Source: Bacteroidota bacterium (GTDB lineage: Bacteria; Bacteroidota; Bacteroidia; Bacteroidales; Prolixibacteraceae). Taken from it: a stretch of DNA of 64,000 bases. Of the stretch, positions 28,029 to 31,515 are shown one piece after another (positions within the stretch are counted from its first letter, which is position 1; the number at the start of each line of letters is the position of its first letter). The notes under the pieces are model-generated. The model had not been told where the DNA came from and did not search any database. It worked only from the letters and a program-made list of their open reading frames with translations. Location: contig JBDLJS010000001.1 in assembly GCA_039714235.1 (NCBI GenBank), positions 17,595 through 81,594 of the forward strand, in the 5' to 3' direction. The position numbers were made by a program, and so were the translations under genes.

Positions 28029-29294
28029 CTATTTTATGAATTTATCGGCCCATTTAATGTATTGTTCCCAGTCGTAATCGGTAACATCGTGTTTTCCTGT
28101 TCGAATATGGTATGCAACCGTATTTTGGATTGGCTGATTAACTGCAGGCATTTCCTTTTGAATGATACCCTTTTTCCCGTATAGTTCATAAACTGGTGTG
28201 GCATACAACGCTGAAAGGAATTCTCCTTTGGGGTCGGCCCACTTGTCTTCTTCTGCACTGGCAACATAAACCGGGCGTGGAGCTAATAATGCTATCAACT
28301 CATGCTGGTCAGCAGGTAATGCCTCCTCGTTTTTAGCAAATCCTTTAAAATTTTTACAAAACCAATGCGGAAAACTTTTTGTAATTCTCCAAATGGTTTC
28401 TCCGTACCTCCGTTTTGAAAGTGCAGCACCTCCACAACCCGAATTATTGGAAATTACCCCGGCAAAACGCCCATCGGTAGCTCCTGCCCACAACGATGTT
28501 TTACCCAGCCGCGAATGTCCGAAAACAATCACACGCGATGCATCTATATTTTTATCTTTTTCAAAATAATCCATTGCTTTACTCAACCCCCAGGCCCATG
28601 CCGAAATGGATCCCCATTCGTTATTGGCCGGCTGCTGCTGGTCGTCGACATAAAACAATGGGTGCACACCGTCTGTCATATCATCTTTATCCGGATCTAC
28701 CTCGCCGTAATATATAACCGCCAGTCCATAACCGGCATCTATAATTTTCTCAATTGGCCACCGGTTTGTTCTTACCCCTCTCGATTGTTCGGTAAGCTGA
28801 TTGTTTATAATCCCAAACGAGGGATTATTTCTTGTCCATGCCTCCGAAATTATAATATTGGAATTCTCAGTAATCGTATGATTTCCGTAAAAATTGTATC
28901 CCACAAAAACCGGAACCTGTTTATCAGTTTTTGGCAGACATAAATAAATCGTAAAACTTAATGTACGACCATCTCGTTCGAAATTCAACTCCACCTGTTT
29001 TCTCCTTGCTTTTCCGCCACAAGCACCATCGCTTTTTTCCAAAACTTCGAATGACTTAATATTCAGTTTTCCCGGAACTTCGCCATAAACATTTTGGGAA
29101 AAGAATTCAAGCAACTCAGGTCGTCCTTTCTTTTCCCATTGCTTCGTTTTTTTAATCTTCCTCCCTTTAAAAGTTTTTAACGGGTCGGGCACATTAAATT
29201 CTGGTACTTTGCTTTCGTCGTAATTTGGCTCGAATTGGGCGAAGGTAAATTGTACTGCTAACGAAAAAATCAGAAAGAATACAAATCGTTTCAT
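28029..29294 (-). CDS. CE15-like glucuronoyl/acetylxylan esterase (alpha/beta hydrolase)
   Basis: Signal peptide, NYDESKVP, WGSISAWAWG, nucleophile motif GHSRLGKT, SGCGGAAL, DQHELIAL, WADPKGE. Confidence 0.85.
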   Translation of the reverse strand: MKRFVFFLIFSLAVQFTFAQFEPNYDESKVPEFNVPDPLKTFKGRKIKKTKQWEKKGRPELLEFFSQNVYGEVPGKLNIKSFEVLEKSDGACGGKARRKQVELNFERDGRTLSFTIYLCLPKTDKQVPVFVGYNFYGNHTITENSNIIISEAWTRNNPSFGIINNQLTEQSRGVRTNRWPIEKIIDAGYGLAVIYYGEVDPDKDDMTDGVHPLFYVDDQQQPANNEWGSISAWAWGLSKAMDYFEKDKNIDASRVIVFGHSRLGKTSLWAGATDGRFAGVISNNSGCGGAALSKRRYGETIWRITKSFPHWFCKNFKGFAKNEEALPADQHELIALLAPRPVYVASAEEDKWADPKGEFLSALYATPVYELYGKKGIIQKEMPAVNQPIQNTVAYHIRTGKHDVTDYDWEQYIKWADKFIK

Positions 29295-29552
29295 AATTTA
29301 GCTGGTTGAGATAATCTGTTATTTACTTTAAAATTCGCATTTTGAATCCTGAATGCAAAATTCTGAGATACAATTTTTTAGAAAAAGAGAATTTGAGTTA
29401 GGAGTAAATCAATTTTATTTGCGAATAAGCTTCCCTCCTTTTCTATATGCCTTCTGAATCCCTTTCATGAGGTCCTCTGCTGAAATAGTGTTTTTCCTTT
29501 TTTCCAAAGTTTTTAAACCGGCGTATTGGATAGCGTTCACAATGATTGCCAC
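28792..29552. repeat. Direct repeat copy A (CE15 5' end, intergenic region, ATPase 3' end)
   Basis: Aligns by eye with 30738-31515 along its whole length. Confidence 0.9.
29415..29549 (-). pseudogene. Orphan 3' remnant of an Afp15-like AAA+ ATPase
   Basis: Translates AIIVNAIQYAGLKTLEKRKNTISAEDLMKGIQKAYRKGGKLIRK*, versus ANIVNVIQYAGLKTLEKKKNTISAEDLVKGIKKEYRKEGKLIRK* in the intact ATPase. No start codon. Confidence 0.9.
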
Positions 29553-29625
29553 GGGATTTATTATTGGCTGATTTTTAAACGATTAACCGATAGATTGTAA
29601 TAAATATGAATTCTATTAATACTTT

Positions 29626-30588
29626 TTAAAGCTCAAGTTCAATCCAGGCCGGATCGTGGTCACTACCGTTCCCACCAACTTTTTTTCTTCTGTCAATAAA
29701 AGCTTTCTCAAAATTATCAGTTAGAGAATTACTGATCCAAATATGATCATATAAATGATACTCAAAAACACCGGAACCGGGACTGAAACGATGAGTCCAG
29801 ATATGTGTGTCGGGTGGAAATTTTGTTTTGTTCATTTCACCAATTTCCTCAGGATTTGAAAGAGCATTAGTCAGGTTCAATTCCGTATCTTTTGTAAACG
29901 GTTCCAGAAATTCTGACTCAACGACATCATTCATATCGCCGGTTAAAATATAACGACTGTTTGGCCGTGTTACCGATTTAATAATTTTGGCAATTGTTGC
30001 TGATTGCTTTCTTCTTCTTTCGTTACATGCAATTGCCCCAGCAACCTGGTCTTCGAAGAATGGAACAAAATTACTCTTTAAATGAGTATTGAATATTGTA
30101 AATAATTTGTGTTTTCTTGACCTGTTTAGAACATCTACCTGGAGCAGATCCCGTCCAAAAACGGGGGCACCGTTAGTATCTCCATTGGCACGGGCCTCTT
30201 TCCATGAAGTAATTGCTCCAATGGGATATCTTGATAAAATTCCAACATCAATTAACCTGGAATCATTTCCTTCAATTAAAACAACGTATGGATACCGGTT
30301 TTTTTTCAAATAATCTTTATTGAATTTTTTTAAAATCCCAATGTCCTCAACTTCCTGAACGCAAAGAATATCAACATTTATTCTCAATAAACGCTCAGCT
30401 ATTTCTAAACTTGTTTTGTGACTTTTGGGTTTTACCAAATTACCTTTGAACTTCCGAATGCGGAAATGATCATCTTTATCAAAAGAATAGCTTACTTCAT
30501 TACCTTCTTTAATTTCGTTAATGTTTGCTTTAAAGTTATAACGTGAAAAAAGATTGTTTAGATTAAAAGTTCCTACTGTTAATTTCAT
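29626..30588 (-). CDS. Endonuclease/exonuclease/phosphatase (EEP, DNase I-like fold) protein
   Basis: TFNLNNLF, DILCVQEVE, HLKS, TGDMND, YDHIW and SDHDPA catalytic motifs; no signal peptide. Confidence 0.9.
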   Translation of the reverse strand: MKLTVGTFNLNNLFSRYNFKANINEIKEGNEVSYSFDKDDHFRIRKFKGNLVKPKSHKTSLEIAERLLRINVDILCVQEVEDIGILKKFNKDYLKKNRYPYVVLIEGNDSRLIDVGILSRYPIGAITSWKEARANGDTNGAPVFGRDLLQVDVLNRSRKHKLFTIFNTHLKSNFVPFFEDQVAGAIACNERRRKQSATIAKIIKSVTRPNSRYILTGDMNDVVESEFLEPFTKDTELNLTNALSNPEEIGEMNKTKFPPDTHIWTHRFSPGSGVFEYHLYDHIWISNSLTDNFEKAFIDRRKKVGGNGSDHDPAWIELEL

Positions 30589-30737
30589 AGTGTGTTATTT
30601 TTAGTATAAGTTAACACTAATTTATTGATTACCAAAGGGGGATAGTTAAAACACCTTGAACACGCATATCTCCACCTGGCACAATACCAACATTTTCTCC
30701 TAAGCCAGTCATACAACCTTCAATTCTTAATCTTACC

Positions 30738-31238
30738 GTAAGCTGGTTGTTAATTATCCCAAACGAGGGATTATTTCTTGTCCAGGCATCCGAAATAATA
30801 ATATTCGAATTCTCAGTAATGGTATGGTTCCCATAAAAATTATATCCCACGAAAACCGGAACCTGTTTATCGGTTTTTGGCAGACATAAAAAAATCGTAA
30901 AACTTAATGTACAGCCATTTCATTCGAAATTCAACTCCACCTGTTTTCTCCTTGCTTTTCCACCACAGGCACCATCGCTTTTTTCCAGAACATCGAAGAA
31001 AGAGAAATTCAGTTTTCCCGAAACTTCGCCATAAACGTTTTGAGTTAAGAGGTCAAGTAGTTCAGGTCGTCCTTTCTTATTCCACTTTTTTGTATTTTTT
31101 ATTTTCTTTCCTTTGAAAGTTTTTAACGGATCAGGCACTTTAAGCTCGGGGATTTTAGTTACGTGTAATTCGGATAGAATTGGGCGAAGGTAAATTGTAC
31201 TGCTAACGAAAAAATCAGAAAGAATACAAATCGTTTCA
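30738..31238 (-). pseudogene. Truncated, disrupted CE15 esterase 5' fragment
   Basis: Same signal peptide as 28029-29294. A 1-nt deletion after ...FYPNY, CGA>TGA after VELNFE, and homology stops at ...INNQLT. Confidence 0.9.
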
Positions 31239-31515
31239 TAATTTAGTTGGTATCGGGATAAAACTCCTTATATCCTTTAAAATTCGCATTTTGAATCCTG
31301 AATGCAAAATTCTGAGACACAATTTTTTAGAAAAGTGAGTTCGGATTAGGTGGAAGATATGAAATTTGATATGATTTTTATTTACGAATTAGTTTTCCCT
31401 CTTTCCGGTATTCTTTCTTAATCCCTTTTACGAGGTCTTCTGCTGAAATGGTATTTTTCTTTTTTTCCAAAGTTTTCAAACCAGCATACTGGATAACGTT
31501 CACGATGTTAGCCCC
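30738..31515. repeat. Direct repeat copy B
   Basis: Counterpart of 28792-29552, offset about 1.95 kb. Confidence 0.9.

Follow-up and report, generated by a model that had tools for sequence, protein, structure and literature searches.

The 3′ end of an operon for an extracellular contractile injection system (eCIS), a phage-tail-like apparatus, in a marine, Draconibacterium-like bacterium carries what is probably the scar of the illegitimate capture of a foreign eCIS terminal module, combined with homologous recombination with an unsampled sister lineage. Two diverged copies of a direct repeat, A and B, flank a 1.19-kb spacer at this operon end. The locus lies in a window of 64,000 nucleotides, the whole stretch of DNA that was analysed, from a 199-contig MAG derived from a marine metagenome; the coordinates of its features are given in the table. 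eCIS operons vary most at their 3′ payload end and, to our knowledge, the arrival of new eCIS payload genes has rarely been documented at the base-pair level. The present locus would record such an arrival through a foreign module, one reconstructed illegitimate joint, a displaced ATPase stub and two allelic copies of the junction. Recombination between diverged lineages would have been involved, all without mobility genes, and the picture of module displacement would be widened from T6SS and Rhs loci to eCIS.

Table. Coordinates of features at the eCIS operon border (window positions)
Feature	Position	Strand	Evidence
eCIS operon	31378-55856	minus	Pfam PF04984/PF17482, PF19266, PF04717, PF04965, PF04865, PF19268, PF14065, PF00004, PF13699
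eCIS AAA+ ATPase, intact, 438 aa	31378-32694	minus	PF00004, E 5e-26
Copy B: ATPase tail, IG_B (31240-31377) and CE15 5′ pseudo-fragment (30739-31239)	30739-31517	minus	alignments, codon table
DUF4157/eCIS_core (“core2”-type) effector remnant, last 35 codons and stop	30629-30740	minus	C-terminus homology
EEP (endonuclease/exonuclease/phosphatase) gene, intact, 320 aa, without signal peptide, 35% GC	29626-30588	minus	PF03372, E 3e-11
Non-coding right end of spacer, 71 nt, between EEP stop and ATPase stub	29555-29625	minus	contains right-hand junction
Copy A: ATPase 3′ stub (29415-29554), IG_A (29295-29414) and first 167 CE15 codons	28793-29554	minus	alignments
Near-identical blocks common to both copies	29232-29368 (copy A)	minus	alignment
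CE15 glucuronyl esterase, intact, 421 aa, signal peptide	28029-29294	minus	PF22244, E 9e-30

The operon was classed as an eCIS of the Afp/PVC-like kind on the presence of sheath, tube, VgrG-like spike, gp25 and Baseplate_J genes in one operon, which also encodes a CIS tape measure, a Pvc16-like terminator, an AAA+ ATPase and a DUF4157 protein. The ATPase gene is located downstream of the tape measure, baseplate, tube and sheath genes, and the CE15 esterase is a housekeeping neighbour of the eCIS. The diverged direct repeat of about 770 bp that a reading of the sequence without database searches (the sequence-only reading) had placed at this border was recovered by a repeat search and by alignments, with its coordinates shifted by 1 to 2 nt. 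The two copies start 1945 to 1963 nt apart, are identical at 647 of 761 aligned positions (85%, or 82.7% with gaps counted) and are the only copies in the genome. Each copy, of about 0.77 kb, consists of the last 46 codons of the ATPase gene, the intergenic region and the first 167 codons of the CE15 gene. The alignments bore out the proposed division of the genes, an intact ATPase with a broken esterase in B and an ATPase stub with an intact esterase in A, the stub being 46 codons long rather than 44. A self-comparison of the whole genome detected ordinary tandem paralogs only, and no other repeat-spacer-repeat arrangement of partial genes was evident, contigs C140 and C35 having been viewed only coarsely. 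The reported lack of a nearby integrase or transposase was reproduced in a Pfam search of the surrounding ORFs, which found none within about 10 kb and no such domain in any ORF from 19.7 to 60 kb. Insertion of a transposon or IS element was rejected, as there was no transposase or integrase, the repeat search found no inverted repeats at the spacer ends, and the flanking repeat is 0.77 kb long and diverged rather than a short target-site duplication.

Copy B contains the end (31378-31517) of the intact ATPase, which aligns over its full length with the ATPases of relatives in the genus at 69 to 75% amino acid identity. The CE15 fragment of this copy has lost 1 bp between 31165 and 31164 (codon 26), carries a CGA-to-TGA change at codon 107 (30920-30922) and is truncated after codon 167. 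In copy A, the CE15 gene is intact; its product shares 70 to 79% of its amino acids with counterparts in Draconibacterium and other Prolixibacteraceae and has a PF22244 match that spans residues 223 to 373. The ATPase stub of this copy shows decay at invariant positions, with derived replacements such as G>V, N>I, E>A and E>G. This stub is situated downstream of the EEP gene, where it forms a duplicated 3′ stub of the anchor gene beyond the inserted module.

Comparison of A with B gave NG86 dN/dS values of 0.075 for the ATPase tail, 0.143 for the 5′ part of CE15 and 0.124 for the pooled 211 codons (bootstrap 95% interval, 0.073 to 0.203; none of 5,000 bootstraps at or above 0.5). The pooled value is far from the ratio near 1 that the sequence-only reading had named as adverse to its claim of purifying selection on both copies, and that claim was upheld for the main part of the divergence. 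Differences at the first, second and third codon positions numbered 4/6/18 and 15/6/45, and the codon table contains the synonymous pairs described for GYNFYGNHT (codons 133, 136, 137, 138 and 140) together with the conservative R/K, E/D and S/T changes. As the differences fall mostly at silent positions, they argue for alleles of two lineages joined by recombination and not for a fresh duplication. The dS between the copies is about 0.6 (range, 0.5 to 1.3). Outgroup comparisons are saturated at synonymous sites (dS above 3). Derived replacements numbered 6 to 7 in the ATPase stub versus 1 to 2 in the intact tail, and 12 in the CE15 fragment versus 7 in the intact CE15. This small excess in the dead halves points to a late loss of function. 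The apparent decay per site is 0.046 for the stub versus 0.015 for the CE15 fragment, each figure representing about five events.

The divergence is not evenly distributed. A 43-nt run in the intergenic core (A, 29326-29368; B, 31275-31317) and a 70-nt run covering the RBS, the ATG and the signal peptide (A, 29232-29301; B, 31177-31246) are identical between the copies. Between these runs are about 24 nt with about 40% divergence and a 4-nt indel, and the unconstrained intergenic sequence beside the identical runs differs by 40 to 45%. No synonymous differences were present in codons 1 to 21 versus 38 over 90 sites elsewhere (Fisher P = 0.0018).

The spacer has a GC content of 34% versus 39 to 41% in the flanking genes. 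At its left end, the effector remnant is fused in frame to CE15 codon 167 (ORF 30629-30850) and exhibits 83% amino acid identity to the C terminus of a 542-aa eCIS_core protein (locus L035) and 60% to that of another locus (L027). Comparison ruled out the window's own 737-aa DUF4157 protein as the source of this remnant, and the MAG contained no second eCIS, no second copy of the spacer and no full-length counterpart of the remnant. The left junction has a 3-nt microhomology, TAC, at 30738-30740, where CE15 reads CAGCT-TAC-CGAAC and the source reads CAGGA-TAC-GGTAAG, the source side being a 30-nt consensus from the loose end of one contig. A run-X1 contig with a loose end at 30740 reads VTGFLEYQQD before TVRLRIEG, as would an intact and co-resident source gene. 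On these alignments the left joint is illegitimate, with microhomology only. The spacer stretch 30178-30712 is identical to a co-resident contig of the source type, which makes an old capture hard to accept unless gene conversion occurred later.

The product of the EEP gene has a weak match to the ExeM/NucH DNases (E 2.5e-8, under the family cutoff), and no solved structure was matched by sequence. Homologs with 58 to 69% identity are encoded at the very end of other eCIS operons, in the gene order TMP, AAA, eCIS_core, a 111-aa gene and EEP, and adjoin DUF4157 genes in loci L027, L034 and L035. Homology of the spacer to the EEP homolog loci ends at the ends of the ORFs, the effector remnant excepted, and the 71-nt right end exhibited no homology to the flanks of these loci. 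On these comparisons the spacer is a foreign terminal module of a different eCIS type, and the EEP-fold protein, recurrent at several eCIS operon ends, is a candidate eCIS cargo or accessory factor. More than 1,600 EEP homologs at about 50% identity are spread over many phyla, and one of the six EEP-homolog neighbourhoods examined (L036) had no eCIS genes; a role other than that of a toxin is, therefore, conceivable. A scan for sigma-70 promoters and terminators gave counts at the level of shuffled sequence. Read-through into the EEP gene is now likely from both the eCIS operon and the duplicated promoter region of CE15 (IG_B), which would place EEP where eCIS toxins usually sit.

Relatives with a single ATPase-CE15 junction, which the sequence-only reading had proposed to look for, were found in at least 20 of 80 species of the genus. 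The EEP gene was present in none of these 80 genomes and in none of 400 phylum genomes searched. The ancestral state, judged from the gene order of these relatives, would be a single ATPase-intergenic-CE15 junction. The best identity in a DNA search of the 80 genus genomes was at most 74%, and the best hits among 5.8 billion proteins had amino acid identities of 79% for CE15 and 78% for the ATPase. JGI metagenome contigs were scanned with the conserved intergenic core and, separately, with a degenerate A- and B-specific tail-peptide pattern; neither scan produced hits. Among 119 C-terminal tails of ATPase homologs, none resembled the stub more closely than did the intact tail. Thus, no relative closer than about 74% in nucleotides or 79% in amino acids was present in any collection searched. 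The proposed origin of the copies in different lineages is consistent with the low dN/dS, but the donor lineage was not found in the 80 genus genomes, the JGI contigs or the 5.8 billion proteins. A and B are mutually nearest, with 83% amino acid identity; over this stretch no database homolog exceeds 72%, and the case for xenology is, hence, carried by the selection statistics of 211 codons.

Under the account that we favour, the starting point would have been a single junction of ATPase, intergenic region and CE15. In one lineage, a fragment of a different type of eCIS operon, comprising the end of a DUF4157 effector gene and an EEP hydrolase gene, would have been joined illegitimately, with the left joint formed at CE15 codon 167 via the TAC microhomology, and the join would have duplicated 0.77 kb of the junction so that the insert was flanked by a copy at either end. 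Homologous recombination with a sister lineage, at a distance of about dS 0.6 (roughly 85 to 88% nucleotide identity), would then have made the two junction copies different alleles, with crossovers in or near the 43- and 70-nt identity blocks. The cassette may have been imported into this lineage, or one of the copies may have been overwritten afterwards by a foreign allele. Each copy would have retained one working half (the ATPase in B and CE15 in A) and one redundant half, with the redundant halves decaying for only about the last 5 to 15% of the divergence. This pathway of capture and allelic overlay requires at least two events. We infer a sister-lineage donor and, likewise, the order of events and the expression and role of EEP. 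No sign was seen of the exchange of an eCIS locus that the sequence-only reading had suggested; the material between the copies is the 1.19-kb foreign fragment with the effector remnant and EEP. The idea of one allele laid over another survives in modified form: the overlay is retained, the capture of a small module where the operon ends on its 3′ side is added to it, and the copies are mosaic.

An old tandem duplication of the whole ATPase-intergenic-CE15 unit within one lineage, with both pairs under purifying selection over a dS of about 0.6, is an improbable but not negligible alternative. A later deletion-insertion would have replaced the 3′ part of CE15 in B and the 5′ part of the ATPase in A with the spacer. 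This history, too, predicts a low dN/dS, a sister relationship between A and B and late decay of the cut halves, and it would derive two illegitimate junctions from one event; moreover, one species of the genus (G065) has tandem CE15 paralogs. However, a tandem ATPase-CE15 pair was present in none of the 80 genus genomes, a perfect tandem repeat of 2.8 kb would be unstable, and the retention of an additional eCIS ATPase and an additional esterase by prolonged selection is an ad hoc requirement. Gene conversion would have to be added for the 43- and 70-nt identical blocks beside sequence with 40 to 45% divergence.

An assembly chimera, in which two co-occurring strains or species were stitched together via shared sequence and the copies never occupied one genome, is very unlikely. 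The fragmented metagenomic origin of the MAG would permit such an artifact, and in the sample part of the spacer also occurs in another context, while EEP contains a polymorphic patch. Nevertheless, both new junctions are crossed by unbranched Logan contigs (29339-30121 and 30683-30952) at 35 to 37×, close to the 44 to 45× of the flanks; these are k-mer contigs of short reads and not single long molecules. A few SNPs separate the Logan contigs from the window, so they are not the same assembly, and the possibility of a chimera raised by the sequence-only reading was thereby addressed with independently built contigs. A-specific and B-specific depths tracked each other in two runs (46× and 44× in one; 6.0× and 4.8× in the second), contamination of the MAG was 0.09%, and no Logan contig skipped the 1946 bp.

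Duplication of the 0.77-kb junction in place within one lineage, with capture of the spacer and with the redundant halves neutral from the start, is the simplest route to a repeat-spacer-repeat and is in keeping with the frameshift, stop codon and replacements of invariant residues in the dead halves. It predicts a dN/dS near (1 + w)/2, or about 0.55, compared to the observed 0.12 with its upper bound of 0.20, and in-place duplication with neutral decay was, therefore, rejected; it also predicts about 106 and 68 replacements on the dead halves, of which 12 to 17 and 6 to 8 were observed, and a third-position share of differences of about 44% rather than 67%. Equally hard to credit is selection on the fragments themselves as small proteins (a CE15 1-167/effector fusion and a 45-codon stub ORF) mimicking purifying selection, as the in-frame CE15-spacer junction and the possible GTG start of the stub are countered by the upstream frameshift and stop that now break the fusion frame, by the lack of the catalytic part from the CE15 fragment and by the loss from the stub of residues invariant among homologs.

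The capture and overlay that we favour can be compared with three known systems. eCIS operons such as PVC and Afp have variable 3′ payload regions with eCIS-associated toxins (Geller et al. 2021, PMC8213781). [quoted passage not shown] In the window it follows the ATPase and a dead esterase fragment and not directly a DUF4157 gene, although the DUF4157 remnant is immediately upstream of it. Neither of two eCIS toxin surveys, PMC8213781 being one, names an EEP-fold protein among eCIS toxins in its main text.

Campbell-type integration, or loop-out, of a segment between direct repeats offers a second parallel, in that a single crossover of a circle (repeat plus spacer) with a single-junction chromosome gives a repeat-spacer-repeat, and heteroduplex repair at the crossover could create identical blocks. 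Unlike such systems, this locus has no replicon or site-specific recombinase, and neither a circular form nor an excised single-junction allele was detected in the contigs. We regard as doubtful an integrase-free “homology cassette”, in which the repeats recombine to release a 1.95-kb circle with one junction copy and the EEP module, and the circle or a linear unit re-enters the ATPase-CE15 junctions of relatives via the 43- and 70-nt blocks. If true, such a cassette would spread eCIS terminal modules across species, leaving diverged flanks around near-identical cores.

By analogy, the closest precedent is the displacement of effector modules at T6SS and Rhs loci. [quoted passage not shown] 2017, PMC5361080), and the same route has been proposed for displacement of Rhs/CDI C termini (Jackson et al. 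2009, as cited in PMC5361080). The present locus differs in being an eCIS, in having no immunity gene, in that its repeated anchor, instead of a toxin core, comprises the tail of the ATPase gene, a promoter region and the 5′ part of a housekeeping esterase gene, and in that the anchor copies are diverged alleles (dS about 0.6) and not remnants of the same lineage. In common with those loci, a foreign module would have entered the 3′ end of a contractile-injection cluster, with a homology anchor in a conserved upstream gene and an illegitimate other end, and the 3′ stub of the conserved gene would have been pushed downstream with no integrase, such arrays being able to pass later between strains by ordinary homologous recombination. 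Three marks of a displacement scar, a downstream anchor stub, a foreign insert and one illegitimate microhomology joint, are present at the eCIS border.

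The eCIS (extracellular contractile injection system) operon is complete, spanning 31.4 to 55.9 kb of the window, and ends with an AAA+ ATPase gene. Its products include sheath, tube, spike, gp25, Baseplate_J, CIS tape measure, Pvc16-like and DUF4157 cargo proteins, and it lies between housekeeping genes (recN, coaBC, rpoZ, bamD and an aminotransferase gene to one side; enolase plus an HtrA-like protease to the other). At its border are two direct repeats separated by a spacer, with the positions and contents described in the sequence-only reading. Each copy comprises the ATPase tail, an intergenic region and codons 1 to 167 of a CE15 glucuronyl esterase, and the copies share 85% identity across aligned positions; no third copy was found in the source genome. 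This genome is a MAG from a marine metagenome (199 contigs, 90% complete, 0.09% contamination), and the nearest homologs bear names of Draconibacterium and other Prolixibacteraceae. The CE15 fragment of copy B carries three lesions: a 1-bp deletion in codon 26, CGA>TGA in codon 107 and truncation after codon 167. No integrase or transposase domains were detected between 19.7 and 60 kb, in line with the earlier observation.

Features of the repeat-spacer-repeat region, in gene order (window positions)
Feature	Position	Strand	Remarks
AAA+ ATPase, intact, 438 aa	31378-32694	-	first in gene order
Repeat copy B	30739-31517		
IG_B, intergenic, 138 nt		-	between ATPase and CE15 fragment
CE15 esterase 5' fragment	30739-31239	-	within copy B
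Spacer, 1.19 kb	29555-30740	-	between CE15 fragment and ATPase stub
Repeat copy A	28793-29554		
ATPase 3' stub, 46 codons	29415-29554	-	within copy A
IG_A, intergenic		-	between ATPase stub and intact CE15
CE15 esterase, intact, 421 aa	28029-29294	-	3' of IG_A
3-keto-disaccharide hydrolase gene		-	next after intact CE15

Other features were seen nearby and elsewhere in the MAG. The ATPase and the 737-aa DUF4157 cargo gene are separated by a 135-aa ORF (32716-33123, minus strand, GC 29%). It matched no family, its DNA had hardly any counterpart in 40 relatives, and it is likely a further lineage-specific accessory gene. In their 5' regions (34973-35296 and 36112-36441), the 737-aa and 372-aa cargo genes are 79% identical across 330 nt, suggesting a common N-terminal leader. 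Diverged direct repeats a few kilobases apart (79 to 86% identity) also occur on contigs C140 (364-6154) and C35 (7383-12968) and may be either ordinary tandem paralogs or scars of a similar type.

Both copies were aligned with ten outgroup junctions, and codons were read as in the intact genes. Nei-Gojobori estimates of dN/dS were 0.075 for the ATPase tail (dS 1.26), 0.143 for CE15 codons 1 to 167 (dS 0.51) and 0.124 for the pooled segments (dS 0.62; bootstrap 95% interval, 0.073 to 0.203), with none of 5,000 replicates reaching 0.5. An in-place duplication kills one member of each coding pair at once and, hence, is expected to give a ratio of (1+w)/2, or ~0.55, with ~106 and ~68 replacements in the halves left dead (CE15 fragment and ATPase stub). 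Outgroup polarization gave far fewer, with 12 derived replacements in the CE15 fragment versus 7 in the intact gene (5 ambiguous) and 6 to 7 in the stub versus 1 to 2 in the intact tail, and in-place duplication was rejected. Stub changes at homolog-invariant residues were G>V, N>I, E>A and E>G. Dead halves thus carry ~0.02 extra substitutions per site, or ~5 to 15% of a branch of length dS/2, indicating that the copies diverged mostly inside working genes and that the redundant halves lost function late. As the truncated copies cannot have worked at their present sites, the divergence is older than the present arrangement. The earlier proposal of divergence under purifying selection, with recombination later joining the copies, is thus supported on statistical rather than phylogenetic grounds, the pooled ratio not being near 1 and no donor lineage being among those sampled.

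Divergence was uneven across the repeat. Unconstrained intergenic parts were 40 to 45% different, with indels, while a 43-nt run in the intergenic core was identical between copies; one outgroup retains part of this run, a possible promoter element. A second identical run of 70 nt covers the RBS, ATG and signal peptide, and codons 1 to 21 had 0 synonymous differences versus 38 over 90 sites elsewhere (Fisher p = 0.0018). Identical blocks are the pattern expected of crossover points or of retained segments of a mosaic recombination tract. Seeding of homologous recombination requires stretches of identity, and at such divergence only the 43- and 70-nt blocks are long enough.

DNA identity at the locus was ≤74% in all 80 other species of the genus. 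Relatives with a single ATPase-CE15 junction, for which the sequence-only reading had advised a search, made up at least 20 of these 80 species (gap of 130 to 520 nt; 10 of 20 confirmed by tblastn, 10 inferred from match coordinates), and the EEP (endonuclease/exonuclease/phosphatase fold) gene of the spacer was present in none in DNA and protein searches. The single junction is, therefore, ancestral and the repeat-spacer-repeat arrangement derived. The main rival, in which the entire ATPase-CE15 pair was duplicated in tandem within this lineage, both pairs were long functional and the interior was later replaced by the spacer, fits the selection data. It needs both an unstable 2.8-kb repeat and a second ATPase to have been maintained over a long time, with no sign of this in relatives, and is considered rather unlikely.

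The arrangement was also checked in Logan contigs, built independently from the sequencing runs, as k-mer-level evidence from short reads rather than from single molecules. Contigs spanning the passages from stub to spacer (29339-30121) and from spacer to CE15 fragment (30683-30952) had depths of 35 to 37x versus 44 to 45x in the flanks, and they carried a few SNPs relative to the window, indicating that they were not merely the same assembly. As both new junctions lay within unbranched contigs, A- and B-specific depths followed each other in the second run (6.0x and 4.8x) and no Logan contig skipped the 1946 bp, an assembly chimera is very improbable.

The first 112 nt of the spacer encode the last 35 residues and stop of a DUF4157/eCIS_core protein; identity is 83% with the C-terminal end of a protein of 542 aa in metagenomic locus L035 and 60% with that of one in L027. 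This remnant is joined in frame to CE15 codon 167 (ORF 30629-30850, minus strand); at the event, the chimeric ORF would have encoded the signal peptide, CE15 residues 1 to 167 and 35 effector residues, and it is now disrupted by an upstream frameshift and stop codon. The window's own 737-aa DUF4157 protein was rejected as source, its C-terminus being different, and the MAG contains no second eCIS. Next follows the intact EEP gene (320 aa; PF03372), with catalytic-looking motifs and no signal peptide. Four homologs (58 to 69% identity) have eCIS genes upstream on their contigs, the order in L034 and L035 being tape measure or AAA ATPase, DUF4157 protein(s), a 111-aa gene and EEP; past EEP, strand or gene content switches. 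The subfamily was not detected in the 80 genus genomes or a 400-genome phylum sample, and spacer GC is 34% versus 39 to 41% in neighbouring genes. Taken together, the remnant, EEP context, lack of EEP hits and low GC indicate that the spacer is a terminal module from another eCIS lineage that lacks only the 111-aa gene of such modules.

A 110- to 111-aa protein with a hydrophobic N-terminus and no Pfam or NCBIfam match was always encoded directly 5' of EEP in L025, L026, L027, L034, L035 and L036, the L036 pair lying on a contig without eCIS genes. Its gene is absent from the spacer and from the contig of the closest homolog, L028.

One Logan contig from run X1 follows the spacer to 30740 and then diverges, encoding in gene orientation VTGFLEYQQD immediately before TVRLRIEG, an uninterrupted DUF4157 gene (compare L026 and L035). 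At this left joint, CE15 CAGCT-TAC-CGAAC meets source CAGGA-TAC-GGTAAG (the source side being a single 30-nt consensus), and the 3-nt microhomology TAC is typical of illegitimate recombination. X1 depth over 30178-30740 was 57.7x versus 35 to 37x alongside; this excess and the contig running into intact DUF4157 indicate a source-type locus co-resident in the sample at ~20x, identical to the spacer over at least 535 nt and absent from the MAG. Within EEP, 30122-30177 (codons 138 to 156) had two X1 haplotypes (17.6x and 20.8x) with 8 SNPs in 56 nt, giving 4 replacement and 3 silent codon changes; run X2 showed the alternative haplotype only, and the patch resembles a gene-conversion tract at its polymorphic end. 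Another X1 contig follows copy A to 29517 and then enters unrelated AT-rich DNA, not ATPase-like and absent from the MAG, possibly because a related organism has a rearranged border of its own.

In the most probable history, a foreign module would have been captured illegitimately, duplicating the junction, and homologous recombination with a sister lineage at ~dS 0.6 would have brought diverged alleles together. The cassette could have been imported from its lineage of origin, crossovers within the repeats leaving a donor-type central block in both copies; alternatively, a foreign single-junction allele could later have been placed as a mosaic tract over one copy. Decay appears slightly greater in the stub than in the CE15 fragment, and this would point to early capture followed by overlay on copy B, although each estimate is based on ~5 substitutions. 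In place of the eCIS locus exchange envisaged earlier, the narrower reading is that a small terminal module was captured and an allele overlaid at the border of the operon.

The EEP gene shows three of the four selection features of candidate eCIS toxins of Geller et al. (PMC8213781); EEP proteins are not named in the main text of two eCIS toxin surveys, including that one, and members of the family are also common away from eCIS loci. Displacement of Vibrio T6SS effector-immunity modules and of Rhs C-termini has been proposed to occur by homology-facilitated illegitimate recombination, the resulting arrays later spreading via ordinary homologous recombination (PMC5361080), and is the closest described process. 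As in those systems, the locus is anchored in a conserved upstream gene, has a displaced 3' stub, belongs to an injection-system cluster with a foreign module at its 3' end, and lacks an integrase. It differs in being part of an eCIS, in having a repeated anchor made up of a gene end, promoter region and start of an unrelated housekeeping gene, and in that its two anchors are diverged alleles. The locus would be a well-preserved further example of an already known kind of event.
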